The notes under the pieces: generated by a model
The model's input: only the letters and a program-made list of their open reading frames with translations
Database searches by the model: none
What the model was told of the DNA's origin: nothing
Origin: Balanoglossus misakiensis
Lineage: Eukaryota; Animalia; Hemichordata
Length of the DNA stretch: 64,000 nt
Direction: 5' to 3'
Assembly (NCBI GenBank): GCA_040954595.2
Contig: CM082586.2
Location: 4,884,509 to 4,948,508, forward strand
Program-made: the position numbers and the translations under genes
In this document: piece by piece, positions 41,232 to 63,722 of the stretch
Position numbering within the stretch: position 1 is the stretch's first letter
Layout: each line of letters begins with the position of its first letter

Positions 41232-42550
41232 GTAGGCGGCCATTCGGCGGTTTTAAAGTTATTGCACGAATTTGGGCCAAGCACGAGTATTTTAATTCAG
41301 ACTCGCGTATGCCTTATCACTTCCTAACTTATCGTAAACTTATCAAACTGGATATTTACTGCCAATAGATTCAGTACTCCGGGACTGTAATCTCGGTTTC
41401 TGGAGGAAATCCCTCAAACTTTTACGATCTTTGGTTTTAGGGGAGAGTCACGGAGTTCGAAAGCCTCAAGCTCGTTTACACCAAATGGTGGGGTATAGCT
41501 TGTATGTACAGCGCAGTATATATTGACTGACTATGGTGTTATACGTCTCATTGACATACTGTTGGGGTATAAAGTCCATAGCGTTCCCAAAACCATATTG
41601 TTCCTACTCTGTAAATTAAACTTGGCATATGACCTCGCTGATAGAAGTAAACTTGTTTGTCGTCTCAGCATTTTTTTTTGAAATCTCATAAAAAGTTTTT
41701 CGTTTCAAACTTTGCGCGCTTGTGTTTTTCCTGCTCTATACAGAATTGCCCATCACCTGGTCCATTTCCTGTAAACTAAAACAATTCCACAACCTGTTTC
41801 ACACTTTTTTTAAAGATCAGCCTCGTTAACACCACTTATCCGCTTTTGTGCGAAAACAGGTGACTTTTATCCGCTTTGATCAAACGCAACTTGCCGATGG
41901 CATTGCACGGGCGGGGGAAAGTTTCGTCTCCGAATCTGAAAAGTACATGTAGGCATTTACACACGAGGCGATTTTAAAGTTGTTTGGTCGTACAGCCCCC
42001 GGAACGCACGCTCTCTGTACCCCCGAGTCCGGCCGATCGATCATCGCTCTATCACCAGCAACATCGGGTCGGTAGGCGTTCCCTCGGCCCCAATGAGAAA
42101 TCGTAATTTCTCAATGAAGGCATGTTTTGCTGATAACCCTATCCCAAAATATTTATGTACCGATTTACTAGCCTTGTAACGGAATTGCTGCGTGTGCCGT
42201 GGACGTTTTAAATTGTTTTTGCGCGGTCTTGAATCGTTCCATATGCTGGCTGGGCGTATAAAGTTGGCTGGATGATGAGTAAGCTTTGGTAGTTTATTGA
42301 GAATCAGGAAGGGGTCTTCACTCACTGCCTATTTCAGCATTGCTCAGTCCGAGTCTGAAGTTTATGTTCAAAACGACATCTATCGCCGAACACGCATGCC
42401 ATATTCCTCCAAGTTTAGAGTAAGCTTTTACCTTCCTTGTGTTGATCGTGTTGAAGTTTTGCGCATGTAGACGGCGATATAATTTTCACAAATCGTTGAT
42501 GTTTTCCTAAATATTTTATTAATGGAAAAATTCGTTTCTTTTGGTTACAG

Positions 42551-42648
42551 GTCTAGCTGTGTGAAGTATTTTATTCACACTGTACTTTTTGAAAGTTTGA
42601 GAACTGTTTTGAGCTTCCTTTGTTTTACTGGTTACTATATGGATTCCT
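42551..42648 (+). other. 5' UTR part of the first coding exon
   Basis: Pyrimidine tract plus ACAG acceptor ending at 42550, 98 nt before the ATG at 42649. Confidence 0.6.
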
Positions 42649-43510
42649 ATGGACCAAAGCGACTCAGACTGGATAACCACCACTGACTCGATCAAATCCT
42701 CGCCGAATCACCACCGCACCTCAAGCGTCAGCGACAGTGAGGCAAGGCAGCAGCAGCAGCCCAACCGGACATCCACTCCCACGGCCGCCTCTGGAGACAG
42801 TCCCCGAAGCGCCAGAGTCAGCCACCCGGCGGAACACTCGACGACGCGCTCAGTAGTGGTTCAAAGTTCGCCAGCGGGAACGGAGGAGCGAAGCAGCAGC
42901 AGTAGTCGCGTAACCGCCGCCGCCGCAGACTACGCCAGTCGCCTGCAGGGCACCCGTGGTATGCACCACAGCAGTATCGGACTCAGTCTAGCAGAACCCA
43001 GCCAACTACCTTCGTCCGAGGACGTGGAAGTGTTCTTCAACCACCTCGACCAGCCGCCCACCTCCTCCCATAGCCAGACACCAATGTACCAGACCATGTC
43101 CATGCACTCCGCACCGCCGACGTACGACGCCCCGACCTCCTTCATACACACGGGCACCAGCCCCGTCTACGTGCCCACCACCCGAGCCATGCCACTGCCC
43201 ATGCACGCCCAGTACCTGCCCTCGGGCACGGGCTCCTCGCAGACGCAGTCCAACAGCCACGCGGTGTGGTGCGGCCAGGCGGACACCGGCTACACCAACA
43301 CCACGACGCACCCGACGGTCAGCCCCCGGTTCAGCTTCCCACCGAGCCCGCCGATCACCGCCACCGGCACGATACCCAGGCCGAACGGTCTCAGCCCCTA
43401 CGCTTCACCCTACGACATCTCCCCGTGGCCGTCGTTTGCTGACGGAACACCGGTGACACTGCACCCCAACGCTGTGAACAGAGCCGGATCGGTTGTGAGG
43501 CGACCGAATG
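42649..43510 (+). CDS. GATA4/5/6: GATA4/5/6 transcription factor, first coding exon (N-terminal activation region)
   Basis: 287 codons plus 1 nt, GC3-rich. Carries GATA4/5/6 class motifs MYQT, FIH..TSPVYVPTTR, VSPRFSFPPSPP and SPY. Donor ATG|GTAAAT at 43510/43511 is phase 1, compatible with the next exon. Confidence 0.93.
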
Positions 43511-43533
43511 GTAAATATTGAGTATAGTAACAC

Positions 43534-50100: not shown

Positions 50101-52827
50101 AGAGACCGATCTTATTTGTACAAGGAAACAAGATCTGCCAAGTTTCCTCTCCACGCATGGGAGGGATATTCTCCGGGGACGCGAACTGAAGTGATCCGAA
50201 AAGTTGTCCCTGGGTCTTCCCACTGGAAAATGGAAACACTTTGTTTTGTTTTCCCAGAAGGACAAGTCTCAGGTTTTTATTATGGTGGGATTTGGGAATT
50301 CGTTTGTAAATATTTTCCCGAAGTTGGTCATAAAGGAAAGTTTTCCCTCCCAGACCGACATAACAATTATTCTTATCAGGTTAGTGTTTTCATTCCCAAG
50401 GAATGATATCCAAAACATAGTGACAATCAATCTTTCTCTTTGTCCCTGTCACATCCCAGCTGTTCCGCCCTGCGTTTGAAAATGATCTGATCCTTCTATA
50501 ATGCTAGGAACGCACCACAGTGCCGGAAATAGGGGCGAAAGGTTAGGGAGAGTGCATGTTCCTGTTTTGAAAAAATACCTACAAAGTGTTCATGTTGTTT
50601 CTAGATTTTAAGGTTATGTTTTTGAATTTCTTATTTTTAGCTGTCACTTAGCTTTGTGCGCAAATGTAAACTCTTCATGCAAATTCTTGTTTTGCACCAA
50701 TTTTTGCATCTGAGGTAAATGGAAAAACATCAGTCTTGTCTTTTGTGGAAAGTTTCAAAGTGAAAATAGCTGAGAAAATGCAGTGTTTTTCTTTTCCATT
50801 GAATAGCCCTGACTTTCAAGTTCAGTGTCAGGGTTTAAAATTTTGGTTTACTTGAGAAAAGTGAAGAAATCAAGGAGAAAACAGAATGTCCCTGAAAGTG
50901 TATCAAGCAAAGTTTACTGAAGTTTCAAATAAACTTTCAGTCTTGGCATTTTTCAGTCTGTTGCAGTTACTCAATACACAGCGATCTTCTCATGTCAACT
51001 ACTACCCCCCACCCTTGTGCTTGAAAAAAAGTGTTTCAAATAAAAATCCTTGGTAGCTGCAATTCTGGTGCGAAGATGGACACAACTTCGACACAATCAG
51101 ACGAGAAATGCCCACTGACGTGTTGAGTGATTCCGGAGTAATTTCAGTGGGGGAAGAAAAAATCAATGGAGGCTCTATTAAGAGTGTATTAGCGGAAGCC
51201 GGCAGTGGCAACAATTTCAATGCCCCGGTCTTCTTGAGTTGGTACAGTTGTTCCACCTGCGCCTGACTTCATACAAAAATCCTCGCGAGCGGTGAAAATG
51301 TGTGAGTGGTTTCCGCCGGGAGTGAGAATTACTCGAGATAATGCAAATTATTCTGTGCACCTTATCAGTCGAGGCGGCGATAAACCTTTTTTCTCCCGAC
51401 GCGATACGGAAGGCGTAGGTGAGAGTGCCCGGAGATAATTTCACCACTTCTGGAGTCTGTGTGCATTTAACATGACCTTCTTAGTCGCACAGCCAAGTTA
51501 TCGCGAGTCGGGCGATTTTTGTCCGCGATCGATAAGCGATATCTCGTGACATGTCCTCTACTCTTAGAACGAAACAACCATTTAAAAGTTATGACCCCAC
51601 CGCTGGCCATAAGACAGATTTTTTTGAAAAATAGAAATTTCATATTGTATCATTACTTGTATCATGTAATTTACTCATAAAAACAATTCCAGTAATGAGT
51701 TTTGGGGGCGCGAACGAAAACCATTGCAACCAGGCAGAGTAAAATGCTTCCAGCATCTTATATGCACCTGCGCTTTGCTTAAAAAAACGGCGATCATGTA
51801 GAATGTTTATCATCTAACATTTTTTTCTGTTCTTTGGTGAGTTTTGCTATATGTACAGGTGAGAGAGAAAGAGATTAACTTCATGTAAGATTGCTTCCAG
51901 GGCAGTTGCCAAGCCGACAGTATCCATGGTGACTTGCGCTGCTGGCTCTTCCCGTTTACTCGGGATCCTTGCTGCCTTGTGACTACAGCCGTGTTGGAAA
52001 AATTCTCAGTGCCTGTTTCCTGTTCACCCAGATATCCATGCTGTGGAAGAATTTGTTGTCGTGTTTTCGTACTGTGCTGTGGTTGTTCGTTTTTGTGTAA
52101 ATGTATACTGTTTTGTGTACGTTTGTTCGACACCGATGTTGAGAATCATGGGGGATGGGGGTGATTGAATTTGACAAAAAATCTTTGAAAAGTAAAAAAA
52201 AATGGCAACGTTCGGACTTAGTTATTCTGTATTACGATGAGAGCTGGGTGAATTGGTGTATGTTGAGGGGGAAATTGACTCAGGAGAGAGAGAGATCTCC
52301 CACAGCATGGTGATTGGTGAACCGGGAGCAGGTAAACTGGTTTTCTTTTCCAACAAGGTAACGTAGAAGACACACACACGGCAGCGAGAGACGATTCAAC
52401 GCCCAGGTAAGGGGAGAGAGCCACCAACACGTTGTCACTCCGCGGTCTGTCAGGTTCACTTTGTTTTACGATATAATCCACCGGCGCTACATTGGTAAAG
52501 TTTGTCAATGGCACTCAGAGGGCTAAGGAGCTGTATGCGGTGTGTGTGTGCGTGCGTGTTTATGGTTTGCGAGAGGGGCGAGGAGGAGAGAAAGGGAGGA
52601 TGTACGAGAGAGGGCTGCACAGTGATTTGAAAAAGTGAGGAAAAAAAGAGTGATATACAGATGATAAGTGAGTTTTATTTTGAGAGATTTGATTTGGATT
52701 TGAACGGATGTGAACTGAAACTCGTAGTGTTAACCCCCCACTCCAAAAAAAAATTAGCGTTTCATGAAATTGCACCAAGAGCTATTCTTTATGGTCAAAG
52801 TAGATTTCTCTACCTTTAACCCCGCAG

Positions 52828-52973
52828 AGGGGAGAGAGTGTGTGAACTGTGGAGCTGTTTCAACCCCTTTGTGGCGTCGAGATGGTACCGGACATTATTT
52901 ATGTAATGCTTGTGGATTATATCATAAAATGAATGGGATGAACCGACCGTTGATCAAACCCCAGCGCCGTCTG
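52828..52973 (+). CDS. GATA4/5/6: GATA4/5/6 N-terminal zinc-finger exon
   Basis: Encodes [49 protein letters not shown] (CX2CX17CX2C; KPQRRL is 4/5/6-type). Acceptor TTTCTCTACCTTTAACCCCGCAG| at 52827; alternative in-frame starts at 52801 and 52804. Donor CTG|GTAAGT, phase 0. Confidence 0.95.
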
Positions 52974-53027
52974 GTAAGTCTTAACGTAAATAATGCCACT
53001 TGCAGTAATATCACGAGAGAAAAAATA

Positions 53028-53237
53028 CTGTAAAGCACTTTATTTTCGCGAGCAATTTAATTTTCGCCAAATACGCGAGAGCCAAAGTAGCGTGAAAATA
53101 AAAAGTCACGTAAATTGTTTTTGAAGATAACGATGCAGTGAATGAAATAATAGAACGCGAAAATTAATACTCGCGGAACAGTGGCCTCTCTCGATATCGC
53201 GAAAAATGTAACTCGCGAAAAATAAAGTGTTTTACAG
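53028..53237. mobile_element. 210-bp MITE with ~25-bp TIRs and TA target-site duplication (Tc1/mariner-like)
   Basis: TA|CTGTAAAGCACTTTATTTTCGCGAG ... CTCGCGAAAAATAAAGTGTTTTACAG|TA (1 mismatch, 1 indel). It forms a CpG-rich patch in an otherwise CpG-poor intron. Confidence 0.88.
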
Positions 53238-53257
53238 TATAATAACCTGGTCGAGGG

Positions 53258-53516
53258 GAAAGTTCGCTTTCAGGGTAGTGTCAGTGGCCGCAGAGTTGCA
53301 TTTAACCCTTTCACCACCATGGTTCAGTCCAAACCCATTGTTTTCTGTGGTATGGTTGGACCTCTATAGAGGGAACTGGGGGTGAAAGGGTTAAAAAAGT
53401 GCTGGAGCCTGGGAAGTCACGAGGGAATGATATCTAGAAAGTGTTGTAATTCTCTCGGGATTTTCCACACTAAGGCCCCCACCTTTACATTGTACCTTCC
53501 CTGAAAGTCAACTTTC
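53258..53516. mobile_element. Probable older inverted-repeat element hosting the TTAA MITE
   Basis: GAAAGTTCGCTTTCAGGG (53258-53275) and CCCTGAAAGTCAACTTTC (53499-53516) are inverted, 16/18 matching. No clear TSD. Confidence 0.5.
53306..53390. mobile_element. 85-bp piggyBac-like MITE
   Basis: TTAA|CCCTTTCACCACCA ... TGGGGGTGAAAGGG|TTAA: TTAA TSD, CCC..GGG ends and a 14-bp TIR with 1 mismatch. A decayed second copy lies at ~16980. Confidence 0.85.
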
Positions 53517-55015
53517 AATTTGTGTCCGAAAGGTAGTAAAATGATCAAAGTCCAGTTGTTAACTCTGCAATATACAAAAATCTAATTTACAAAAATGGCT
53601 ATTTTTGGCGCAGTGGTTTTAAATTCCAAATTAAAATTATTTATCGAAGAAATGCAAAGAAGCTTACACTAGGAAGAAGTTAAGTAAGAATACCAAAAAT
53701 ACACATATTTGTATTGTAAATGTATTTTGTGTATTAGCAGGTTAGGAACTGGACTGTTTGATGCACTGTAATGTAATTAAAACATTTAATCACTATTTAA
53801 GTTGTTAAAAAGCACCTAGTAATCATGCATGATTCAAACACACTACAATCTTGCTAGGCAATCACAGCTTTGATCTTGCCAGTATTAGATTTGATACAAT
53901 CTTCCTGACTTCGGGGGTTGAATGAGGTCAAAAACCACCTGACGACATGGAAAATGGGATTGAATTCAATACTGGACAAATTATTCATGAATAAGTAAAA
54001 GTATTTCATTTGTGCATTCATTACTTTCAATTTGTTCGTAATTTACACAACTTGATTGATTATAAACAAAGAACCACAACCTGACATTTCAATTTTTTAA
54101 AGCATTTTACGAATACCTCAACTTGAAAAAAACTCATATTTGTCTAACATCACTCGCATCATAAAGAGACCATCTTCATTTCAACTTAATTGCATTAATA
54201 ATTTAAAGTAAAAAAAAAAAACAGTTAAAATTGATGTAAAAAAATAATGCATGCATAGTGGTTTGCTATTGCTTTTTGTAGTGTCTTGCAAGATCTTAGA
54301 AGACAAAAACCTTTCTGCCGCTGGCTGCAGGAGTCTTGGGGCAAAGTCTTGGCGCAGCATGTTACTGCACTCAGGTGTTTGTTATTTGATTCCACCACTG
54401 AGGAAGCAACCGACAAATCTCCATGTGCAGTATACCGCTTTTGCTTTTGTGTTGTCATCGTTCATTGTGCCGCAGTGCCGCTGGCGCTATTTTTTGTCAT
54501 TGTTTATGTTAGTCACTACCATTATCATATCATTGCGTGCCCCCCATCTGACGTGGGCAGGCTGGAGCAAAAACAAGGAAAATAAAAGACAAACAAAAAA
54601 TGCCAAACAAAAAAAGCTTTAAAAATTTGCTTCCGGGCTTTAAAGGAAGGCAATTTATGTGCTATCTGCTTCATCACATGCATGTGTTGCTATAGTTACT
54701 AAAAAGGCTTGCGCACACACAAATCATCTGCTTCAAATACTGTTACGATTGAAAAAAAGTTTCAGTGGAACTGTTGAATTTGCACCAATTTTGCATATTC
54801 TTGTTAAAGAATTGACCTGTTTGAATTTTGCTATCCTGTTAAGAAAATTCAAAAGATCTCAAAGTATCTAAATTCAGTGATGTATGCTACAAATTGCCTT
54901 CAGAAAAGAAATCAAGACACTTGTTTTTTTGGAAAAAAAACATGGTGGTTTGCACATGGGTATACTGTTTTGTAGGTTTATAATCGTGGGACTATCTGTA
55001 TATATTTTCCTTCAG

Positions 55016-55141
55016 TCTGCATCACGTCGGGTTGGTCTCCAATGCGCCAACTGTCACACGACACAAACTACACTTTGGCGCAGGAATAACGAGGGGGAGC
55101 CCGTTTGCAATGCCTGCGGACTGTATTACAAGCTACACTCG
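55016..55141 (+). CDS. GATA4/5/6: GATA4/5/6 C-terminal zinc-finger exon, copy A (canonical)
   Basis: Encodes [42 protein letters not shown]. Acceptor TTTTCCTTCAG|, donor TCG|GTATGT, 126 nt, phase 0/0. Confidence 0.95.
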
Positions 55142-55212
55142 GTATGTATAACCAGCCCGGTTCTTCTTCCCTTTTTTTCTTCATCAATTTTTCTTTCCCT
55201 CCCTCTCCCCAG

Positions 55213-55338
55213 AGCGGCTCTCGACATGAGGGTATTTCGTGCTCCAACTGTGGCACCACGGTAACTACTTTGTGGCGTAGGAATAATGAAGGTGAACCGG
55301 TGTGCAATGCCTGTGGGTTGTATTACAAGCAGCACAAA
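55213..55338 (+). CDS. GATA4/5/6: GATA4/5/6 C-terminal zinc-finger exon, copy B (alternative/duplicated)
   Basis: Encodes [43 protein letters not shown] ~50-nt pyrimidine tract precedes the CCCCAG| acceptor; donor AAA|GTATGT; 126 nt, phase 0/0. All four Zn-ligand Cys are intact. Confidence 0.88.
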
Positions 55339-58300
55339 GTATGTATCCCTACAACATGTACCTGTATACACGGACGCTAGCTGTGTTTGTTCTCGTGTCT
55401 CTCTGTCTGACATAGAAGTAATCCCTCTTGTACCCATTAAAAAAACACGGCACAGTTACACCTCATTTCAGATAAGAGATTAACTTCAGGTTAGATGTAA
55501 CTCCATGCTTCACTGTACTAAAGATTCAACATGATAAAATGGGGCAAAATCCTCCACAAACAGAATTAAATCGTAATTTTCCAAACGACAAAGGTGATTT
55601 CTGTGGGGTTATGTCACCCTAACATCAGATATCCATCCCAACTTCATGTACAACTCTGTGTTCCCAACATTCTGTGAAACACGTACCAGTTCTTTGGTTA
55701 ACGATGTAGTTGTTCGTCATAAATGTATCTTAGTTCTTTTTAGAAGAAAAGAAAACTGTAGAACTTTTGTGGTGTAAACAACACTTGGTATTGTTAAGGA
55801 TCCAGTATAGATGTTATTTACAATGTATATCATAAATGTGAAAAACAAATTGATGAGATACATGCATATTGAAGGATTATCTTATCAACTTCTGTAAGAA
55901 CGGAAGCAATCTTTTCAGAAAAAAATGTATAAAACTTGTTATTAGACTTGTGTTACTGTCTTTAAGACTTTATGGACATTTTAAAACTGGATTTCAGTTG
56001 AAAGTTTAGAACTTGATCTCAAAAGTTGTCCAAAAAGCAAGGTTCTCAAAGTTGTTCATGCAAATCTGCAAGCTGTTGATAAGATGCCAGGCTGGCCAAC
56101 CAAAATCTGTCGCCTCCAAGGTTTGTTCGAATCTCGCTGAAATCTGTCAGACTTGGGCAAATAAGAAGCAGTACTTTTGCCTTCACTCGGGGCAAAATGA
56201 CAAGCAAAATTCAACTGAGTAAATCTTTGACAGCGTCCCGTTTGATTTATACCATTGGCAGGGGAGGTTACATCCTTGAAGTGATGTTGACCAACAGTAA
56301 ATCTGTGTTTAACTTGCGAAAGGTTGCCAGTCCAAAGCAAGAGCCCAGAGTGTCAATCCCCGGCAATCAAGTTGTTTAGTGTGAAAAAGTCGTAAACTAT
56401 CTTCAAATGTTTGCAGGTTCTAAAAAACCACTGCTCATATAGGTTTCTTTGCATTTATTTATTGCCGGGGGACATAACTGAAATTGTTTGAAACATGCGA
56501 GAATTCTCATTTATTGTGCGTAGACTAACAAAAAAAAAAGCATGATCTGGCTGGTGAGATATTTTTATAAAAAGGAACTTATGTTGCTCTATGATGACTC
56601 CAGTGGAATCTCGTCGGTAATTTTAGATAGTGCTTTTGACGCAAGTCACGATAACATTTGAACATCGAACGTGGGGTAGGGTGTCAGTGCGTCCCAGTCA
56701 AATATCATGTCAAGATAGAGGTTATCTCGGTTGATAAGTCCGAAACTCCATATCCTCCACAAACCAAGGCACACAGGGGAATATGGAACCGCTGTGACTT
56801 GCCTCGGTTGTTCGGTTTTAGTACTTGCTTTTCTTGAGCGCAAAGAAACCTTAGTTTCCACCTATGTGCGAAAAATGCCACCTGAATTATGCTAATTTTG
56901 AAGGGTACGTTAGTTAAATTTTCACCAGTTGTTTTCCAGACCTTTCTATTTCTGAAGAGCTTATTTCACATTGAGAAGCAGTGCAGTATATGTGTCCATA
57001 GGTATCATTTTATCAAACTTCAGTTGTTGTTTTTTCGGTGCGTAAAAAAGTTGCAAGTTTTTTTTTGTTATTTGTGCCCTGGTATGTCATGACAGCCCCA
57101 AGTTGTTTGTTTGTACTGTGTGCTTAAAAGCCATTGGGAAGCCTACAAAAGCCAGCGCTTATCTGAAATCCATATATCACTGCTCATAAAGCTGACACAT
57201 TAAGTCTTTTATGATCCCCAATTACCTCAGCCCAACAGTACTTGTTTAGCTAGTGAGCAGCGGGCAAACATGACAGGAGCCAGGGGGCGCCAAATTAACC
57301 TGAATGAAAAAAAAGAGAGGTAAAATACCTTTACTCACGCGATTAAGGGACATTGAGAAAAAAATTCTGATTTTTCATTCACATGTTCAGAGATTTGTAT
57401 ATTTCTTGATAATTATTATACATGTATCTATAAAGAAAACGGCCCAAGTGAGTTTTTTGGACAGTGTCGGCGACCACCCTGTGAAACTTGATGGAAACCT
57501 GCCCTGTATTGACGCATGACATTAATTCAATCCACCTGCAACACGTCCGAGATATGTGACATTCAAAATGAGTTTTGATGAAAAAAATCGATACTACATG
57601 TCGAGGGCATGTCCGCATAGGAAAACAATTCCGTCATGTCTATGAAATAGTCGGATTTGAACTGCACGAAATAATTCAGTGGTGGAATTTTTGCGTTTCC
57701 TAGTGCATGATTGCCAGGGTGTTAATGCAGCGGTCAAATATTGCCTGTGCTACTTCAGGTTGTAGATGCGTCCCAGATAGAGAGATGAAACATTGTTAGA
57801 GAAAAACTGTTGGGTCCATTTGGGACAAGTGTATCTTGACTGGTTCAACTGTGACTGTGACTTCTGACTGTTTTTCAGTATTTTTGTTTTATATATCAGA
57901 TGAGTTTTGTTTGAACCCCTGGAGCTTAATGAAATGGCCAGTAATTAGCTTATCGACACAGCCTAATTATGTACAATTAGCATTGTTTATGTTGTAAACT
58001 GGGGTAGGTAGGGTTGGGTGGGTTGAGAGTGGCACTCACAGAATGATTGAATCATGGCAGTTGTACGTGAGCGCCATTTTTCAATTGCAAACAGCCACAC
58101 CTGGAAGTTGTGAGGAAAGCTCCGTGGAATTTGGAACCTTGCCTTGTGAGGTCCCATTGCTTCCATTCTCTGCACAGAGTACGTGTCGTAATGACAAAAG
58201 CGTGCAGGTTTACCACCCAGACAGTCTGCAACAGGAAGGAAGGCAAAACCCCGCAAAAATCATGTCCTGAAACCCATCACAAACAAAAATCCTTTTTTCC

Positions 58301-63533: not shown

Positions 63534-63722
63534 GTGAATCGCCCATTGGCTCTTAAGAAGGACAGCATCCAGACGCGCAAACGCAAACCCAAGAATACTT
63601 CTCAGCAGGGCCAGCCCGACATGAAGAGCAGCCCAAACGTTGGCATGCACGACGACAAGTCCAACATCGTGGCCAGCTCCGCCCCGACCTGTATTGGAAT
63701 GTCGACTCCGACCATCAAAAAG
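63534..63722 (+). CDS. GATA4/5/6: GATA4/5/6 basic-region exon after the C-finger; gene continues beyond the window
   Basis: Encodes VNRPLALKKDSIQTRKRKPKN...PTIKK (TRKRKPK is 4/5/6-type, versus TRNRK in GATA1/2/3). Acceptor CTTCTTTTTAACTCGCAG|, donor AAG|GTGAGT, 189 nt, no stop codon. Confidence 0.93.

Follow-up and report, generated by a model that had tools for sequence, protein, structure and literature searches.

The window, meaning the whole 64-kb stretch of DNA analysed, carries a gene of the GATA4/5/6 class on its forward strand. This class had been proposed in the initial annotation and was supported by the presence of both PF05349 and PF00320 domains and by the best matches, which were GATA4-like proteins; judged from these comparisons, the gene is the GATA4/5/6 of a hemichordate, likely an acorn worm close to Ptychodera flava but of a different species. 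Coding begins in a single large 5′ exon (42649–43510), which runs from the start codon to a phase-1 donor at 43511 and encodes a GATA-N domain (PF05349, E = 6e-14). The N-terminal motifs of the GATA4/5/6 class are therefore located in one large 5′ exon, a layout like that of the GATA4/5/6 genes described in PMC2857956. Identity over this exon was 81% to P. flava (P0067), 66% to Glandiceps talaboti, 54% to Saccoglossus kowalevskii and ∼40% to other proteins. A probable acceptor is located at 42540–42551, ∼100 nt 5′ of the start codon, and non-coding 5′ exons probably lie further upstream in the window.

The finger domain is distributed over three exon types, for the N-finger, the C-finger and a lysine-rich tail, of which the C-finger exon is doubled. 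The N-finger exon (52804–52973, identified from the sequence and by tblastn) has two in-frame acceptors, at 52804 and 52828, which are 24 nt apart; both leave the frame open and the resulting products differ by eight residues. Isoforms X1 and X3 of P. flava differ by the same eight residues, and the Saccoglossus proteins P0081 and P0145 show a seven-residue difference at the same place, so that this choice of acceptor looks conserved as well. The two C-finger exons, designated A (55016–55141) and B (55213–55338), are followed by a basic-tail exon (63534–63722), which completes either C-finger and is in frame with A or B; the remainder of the gene lies downstream of this exon, beyond the window. 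The positions given in the initial annotation for the donor of the N-finger exon (52973) and for the acceptor of the tail exon (63534) were confirmed. Either splice form would encode two PF00320 fingers and an in-frame basic tail, as is characteristic of GATA4/5/6. In the intron after the N-finger exon there are several short inverted repeats, nested in or next to one another (53021–53755), for example with arms at 53025–53046 and 53219–53240 that are 95% complementary, and these are like small non-autonomous transposons.

Exons A and B are 126 nt each, are preceded by AG and followed by GT, and are phase 0/0 at both ends. Each encodes a full CX2CX17CX2C finger (PF00320, the Pfam GATA finger; E = 4e-17 for A and 3e-16 for B), and the donor sequence is the same in both, GTATGTAT. 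The two exons are identical at 32 of 42 amino acids and 85 of 126 nucleotides. Adjacent, homologous and equal in both length and phase, they have the form of a tandem duplicate, and a tblastn search with seven related proteins (E up to 10) located no third copy of the finger within the 64-kb window. The lengths, phases, splice sites and residue identity agree with the initial annotation, as does the comparison of codons 18–39, in which 12 of the 22 codons differ and all 12 differences are synonymous. A is the ancestral-type copy. B is the derived one, and has His, Gln and Lys at exon positions 5, 40 and 42 respectively.

Across the whole exon, synonymous divergence between A and B greatly exceeded non-synonymous divergence (pS 0.74, pN 0.19; Fisher p = 4e-8), and identity at fourfold sites was at chance level (3/13). 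Recent gene conversion across the whole exon is excluded by the chance identity at the fourfold sites. Because the synonymous sites are saturated yet the residues have been kept, the pair is an old duplicate and not an echo of the assembly. The suggestion that exon B is dead or was created by the assembly is largely refuted and can for practical purposes be set aside; one of three other acorn worms has no listed B protein, but the splice sites of B are intact, and despite the synonymous saturation the B residues recur at 42/42 and 40/42 in two other genera. The two exons descend from an old tandem duplication of the C-finger exon of GATA4/5/6 and are under selection. The previous claims that the duplication was old, that both copies had been under purifying selection and that neither was an artefact or dead copy are thus upheld by the ratio of pS to pN, the saturated synonymous sites and the conservation of B in relatives.

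To place the pair in other acorn worms, seven hemichordate GATA4/5/6 proteins, belonging to three clusters, were compared by a cluster-member look-up; the B isoforms were found among the cluster members and were not visible among the cluster representatives. Five of the seven proteins carried A, two carried B and none carried both. Exon A was identical at 42/42 residues to P. flava isoform X1, at 41/42 to Saccoglossus and at 40/42 to Glandiceps, for which the one listed protein is A-type. P. flava isoform X2 (P0144, XP_070533215.1) contains exon B of the window at 42/42, exactly in the place of A, and Saccoglossus P0146 (XP_006818360.1) contains B at 40/42 where P0081 has A. P0067 and P0144 are equal in length and their 10 differences all lie inside the 42-residue exon block; the same was true of the 11 differences between P0081 and P0146, which are also of equal length. 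Replacement of A by B was therefore present in the predicted proteins of two of three related genera. The Ptychodera–Saccoglossus split is some 370 million years old. All 10 B-specific residues are kept between these two genera, while the N-terminal regions of the same pair of proteins are 59% identical.

Both B isoforms are predicted (XP_) RefSeq records produced by automatic annotation, a collection in which alternative models are, as a rule, admitted only with transcript support. The Saccoglossus B record was listed under UniRef and nr only and the present NCBI isoform X1 is A-type, so this B model may have been dropped from the newest annotation. For the P. flava B isoform, the structure predicted by AlphaFold was of too low a quality for use (mean pLDDT 42, pTM 0.21). 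At exon position 38 the window and Ptychodera have Tyr in A as well as in B, Saccoglossus has Phe in each of the two, and the first eight donor bases are common to A and B (donor regions 55127–55149 and 55324–55346). This shared change and the likeness of the donors may reflect either local gene conversion or parallel change; position 38 often varies in other fingers (Tyr in 95 and Phe in 49 of 160).

The initial annotation had left two outcomes for the pair, mutually exclusive exons or a three-finger protein. As B exactly replaces A in the models from two acorn worms, and none of the seven proteins has both, mutual exclusion is likely and a three-finger product unlikely. Exons A and B are thus probably mutually exclusive alternatives, which would yield two two-finger versions, equal in length, of a regulator of the gut. 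The reading frame cannot enforce such exclusion, because A joined to B stays in frame. The N-A-tail, N-B-tail, N-A-B-tail and N-tail combinations are all open, a stop is encountered only when the 71-nt intron is retained, and double skipping is likewise in frame; frameshift or decay upon double inclusion is consequently not the means of enforcement.

The A–B intron (55142–55212, 71 nt) is a pyrimidine tract apart from two groups of adenosines. The eight internal adenosines are located at +3, +7, +9, +10, +13, +42, +45 and +46, and the intron is 94% pyrimidine over +20 to +69, so that every candidate branch adenosine lies no more than 46 nt from the donor of A. Donor-to-branch-point distances of <50 nt are regarded as potential steric interference (PMC5740500), and on the predicted branch points all candidates fall within ∼50 nt. 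A comparable arrangement is described for exons 4a and 4b of OGDH (PMC7969005), which are mutually exclusive, have branch points 25–46 nt from the donor and a long pyrimidine tract, and for which a steric limit of ∼50 nt is given; OGDH differs in being a vertebrate enzyme with mapped branch points, whereas the branch point in the acorn worm is only predicted. Because any adenosine branch point would be inside the ∼50-nt limit, A and B are likely not joinable. Steric exclusion, in which the 71-nt intron would fail to splice because the branch point of B is too close to the donor of A, is the probable mechanism, with the proviso that the 50-nt limit derives from studies of vertebrates and that the candidates at +42 to +46 lie near it. 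Under such a mechanism the joining of A to B would be blocked, while the acceptor of B would stay usable from the N-finger donor. A search of 11 kb for competing RNA structure gave 77 inverted pairs, of which none clearly exceeded what chance would produce, and there were no Rfam matches in the window. One 18-nt inverted pair (54227–54244 and 55174–55191, 89% complementary) has its second arm over the +42 to +46 candidates; it is A/T-rich, is one of the 77 and is likely due to chance.

Joining of both exons would give a three-finger N-A-B protein, in the manner of vertebrate COE/EBF, in which a duplicated helix exon is always included and which provides a precedent for obligatory inclusion (PMC2394523). 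A and B are in frame without a stop and both have good splice sites, as such a product would need. The COE/EBF pattern, in which both copies occur in one protein, was however seen in none of the seven hemichordate proteins, and the spacer between A and B would be 17 residues. In a survey of 398 finger pairs from 439 proteins every spacer was of at least 23 residues (29 in 272 pairs) and none was of 22 or fewer. Finger A would furthermore lose its basic tail, and the A–B intron has the dimensions expected for steric exclusion. These data make the three-finger protein very improbable.

The GATA C-finger is nearly invariant across animals. It does most of the DNA binding of a GATA factor (PMC8844375), and the differences between A and B were compared with contacts described for GATA3. 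By alignment to PDB 4hc7, with the numbering of PMC8611019, exon positions 5, 40 and 42 correspond to GATA3 Arg312, Leu347 and Asn349, at which B has His, Gln and Lys respectively. According to PMC8611019, Arg312 forms a hydrogen bond with the DNA backbone, Leu347 contacts bases, and both Leu347 and Asn349 contact the tail of the partner finger; the same source gives GATA3 L348R, which affects the same leucine as Leu347, as reported in HDR syndrome. A literature search found no GATA2 variant at the position equivalent to Leu347.

The frequency of these residues was assessed in a set of distinct 42-residue non-N finger segments that matched A at 25 or more residues, taken from 439 proteins and comprising 171 segments from other animals, eight from echinoderms and five from hemichordates; as the product of similarity searches, the set does not represent animals evenly. 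Position 40 was Leu in 169/171 of the other fingers and in 8/8 echinoderm fingers, and Gln in none; position 5 was Arg in 161/171 and 8/8 respectively, and His in none. Since B replaces the equivalents of Arg312, Leu347 and Asn349, it is predicted to differ from A in its contacts with DNA and within the dimer, and altered binding by B is predicted. On balance we favour the reading that A keeps the ancestral WGATAR finger and that B would bind with altered strength, flank preference or cooperativity. A and B do not differ at the core base-reading positions (19, 20, 22, 32 and 36), and the WGATAR core itself may be read alike, because positions 18–39 are identical.

That identity, over the region with most of the base contacts, is also what would be expected if splicing were exclusive but both fingers read DNA alike, B being kept for a cofactor surface, a modification site or a tissue-specific level. 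Seven of the 10 differences fall in the linker and first knuckle, where several of the B residues are common in other C-fingers. Set against this, His5 and Gln40 occur in none of the 179 other distinct fingers and are located at positions that contact DNA in GATA3 (PMC8611019); fingers that read DNA alike are a plausible but less favoured outcome. A long-conserved natural pair of alternative fingers in an otherwise identical protein would amount to a ready-made experiment on how the equivalents of Arg312, Leu347 and Asn349 act in the choice of sites and in cooperative binding to them.

The age of the duplication was considered in relation to echinoderm GataE. The echinoderm sample comprised 37 listed proteins, 33 of which included the C-finger, with a few unnamed members placed by cluster or similarity; the first eight residues of the C-finger were identical in all 33, which represent all five classes. 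Gly2, Glu6 and Ile8 occur together in B and in all eight distinct echinoderm fingers and in none of the 171 others, among which no two of the three co-occur and each alone is found in 7–17. Exon A has Gln9 and Gln17 in common with amphioxus, and amphioxus is also its neighbour in a tree built on 42 columns from 28 selected rows, in which B and the echinoderms lie on one side of a branch (support 84/79, unstarred). Forcing the hemichordate A and B into one clade cost 9.4 log units and was rejected (p-AU 0.007), the groups for this test having been named after the tree was seen. Over the whole finger the echinoderm sequences were not nearer to B, with 31–36 identities to A and 31–34 to B.

An early duplication is suggested because Gly2, Glu6 and Ile8 are shared between B and the echinoderms and because the A + B clade is rejected. 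It appears somewhat probable, from these alignments, that the duplication predates the hemichordate–echinoderm split and that echinoderms kept the B-line exon as their only C-finger; A would then have been lost in echinoderms and B would have changed further in acorn worms. A duplication within the hemichordates, with the three residues shared with echinoderms being convergent, or ancestral and later lost from A, is a serious though less probable alternative. The signal is confined to three sites, each of which is found alone in 7–17 of 171 other fingers, the branch support is 84/79, and an A-type finger was present in none of the 33 echinoderm proteins. Such an origin is harder to reconcile with the lack of any pair of these residues among the 171 other fingers, with the rejection of the A + B clade (p-AU 0.007) and with the residues Gln9 and Gln17 that A shares with amphioxus, so that A would have had to revert. 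The GataE isoforms P0288, P0286 and P0300, from sea star and brittle star, have 22–32 extra residues in the inter-finger linker, with no evident likeness to exon A.

A fuller scenario, which we put forward only tentatively, begins with duplication of the DNA-reading finger exon in the only GATA4/5/6 gene of the common echinoderm–hemichordate ancestor. Acorn worms would still alternate between the ancestral finger and a derived one with a different reading of, or dimerisation on, GATA sites, and echinoderms would have lost the ancestral finger, so that GataE of sea urchins and sea stars would use the descendant of the alternative exon. If the early-duplication switch is real, splicing would give acorn worms what gene duplication gave vertebrates. 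Were the echinoderm link true, an alternative exon would have become the sole exon in a whole phylum, and comparisons of GataE with chordate GATA4/5/6 would have been comparisons of paralogous exons. Hemichordates possess only a single GATA4/5/6 gene (PMC2857956), so that work with probes or knock-downs in acorn worms would to date have treated two proteins as one.

Comparable switches are known in other transcription factors. The alternative exon of FOXP1 changes DNA specificity, and the alternative exons of TCF3 constitute the E12/E47 switch. TCF3 is named among genes holding mutually exclusive clusters (PMC5740500). The A/B pair would resemble the FoxP switch in its working. FoxP/FOXP1 (PMC3002244) likewise shows a tandem exon duplication in the DNA-binding domain, two isoforms of which one is near-ancestral, loss of one copy in some lineages and a predicted difference in DNA contact. 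It differs in fold and gene family and in that half a domain is swapped, across Bilateria, whereas the acorn worm gene exchanges an entire zinc finger, a swap seen to date in acorn worms alone; the FoxP isoforms were seen by RT-PCR (PMC3002244) and the acorn worm pair is known from predicted models.

Nearer in gene class are Drosophila serpent exons 4A and 4B, encoding SrpNC and SrpC (PMC8844375), which are mutually exclusive finger-region exons of a GATA4/5/6-class gene and are thought to come from exon duplication. In serpent the N-finger is replaced by a poorly conserved fingerless exon and the C-finger is constitutive; in the acorn worm gene the swap concerns the C-finger, and each of the alternatives encodes an intact and conserved finger. 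Isoform b of amphioxus BfloGATA456 (PMC2857956) shows finger-region alternative splicing in a deuterostome GATA4/5/6, but the first finger is removed and a fingerless exon is used instead. Isoforms with a fingerless stretch replacing the N-finger, like SrpC, were also observed among the amphioxus proteins P0003, P0004, P0148, P0149 and P0152 and the bivalve proteins P0010, P0014, P0015 and P0026; tblastn with P0149 and P0014 located no such substitute exon in the window.

In the accessible part of PMC2857956, each finger of Saccoglossus GATA456 is assigned a single exon, and a second C-finger exon is not mentioned there. A text search of four of its five supplements returned no B-specific string, a search that sequence set as a picture would escape. 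A literature search, in which subscription journals were poorly covered, found no description of two intact alternative GATA C-fingers, and the available parts of PMC7614390 and PMC12768270 held nothing on the A/B exon pair. The B-for-A isoform itself is present as RefSeq XP_070533215.1 and XP_006818360.1, annotated automatically and without comment, function or test; the isoform is therefore unremarked rather than unseen.

To investigate the layout more widely, 79 metagenome loci with a C-finger, from the best 80 of 157 matches, were surveyed. None of these 79 loci had an adjacent pair of C-finger exons or a recognisable echinoderm or hemichordate source, and because of the former result among the best 80 of 157 matches the doubled layout does not appear to be general. 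Two non-standard fingers were found in 13 of the 79 loci, of which 12 were explained by divergent N-fingers. The remaining locus, L036, has one N-finger and two similar C-fingers 3.9 kb apart (L036:74–199 and L036:4001–4126), which are more likely tandem genes than alternative exons. Among the proteins, P0171 is a 147-residue frame with two 42-residue GATA1/2/3-type C-fingers, one of them with Ile at position 40 and Lys at 42. The 22 residues between the two fingers start with Val and end with Gln, resembling a 66-nt intron read through, and P0171 is possibly an independent duplicated C-finger exon pair in a GATA1/2/3-type gene.
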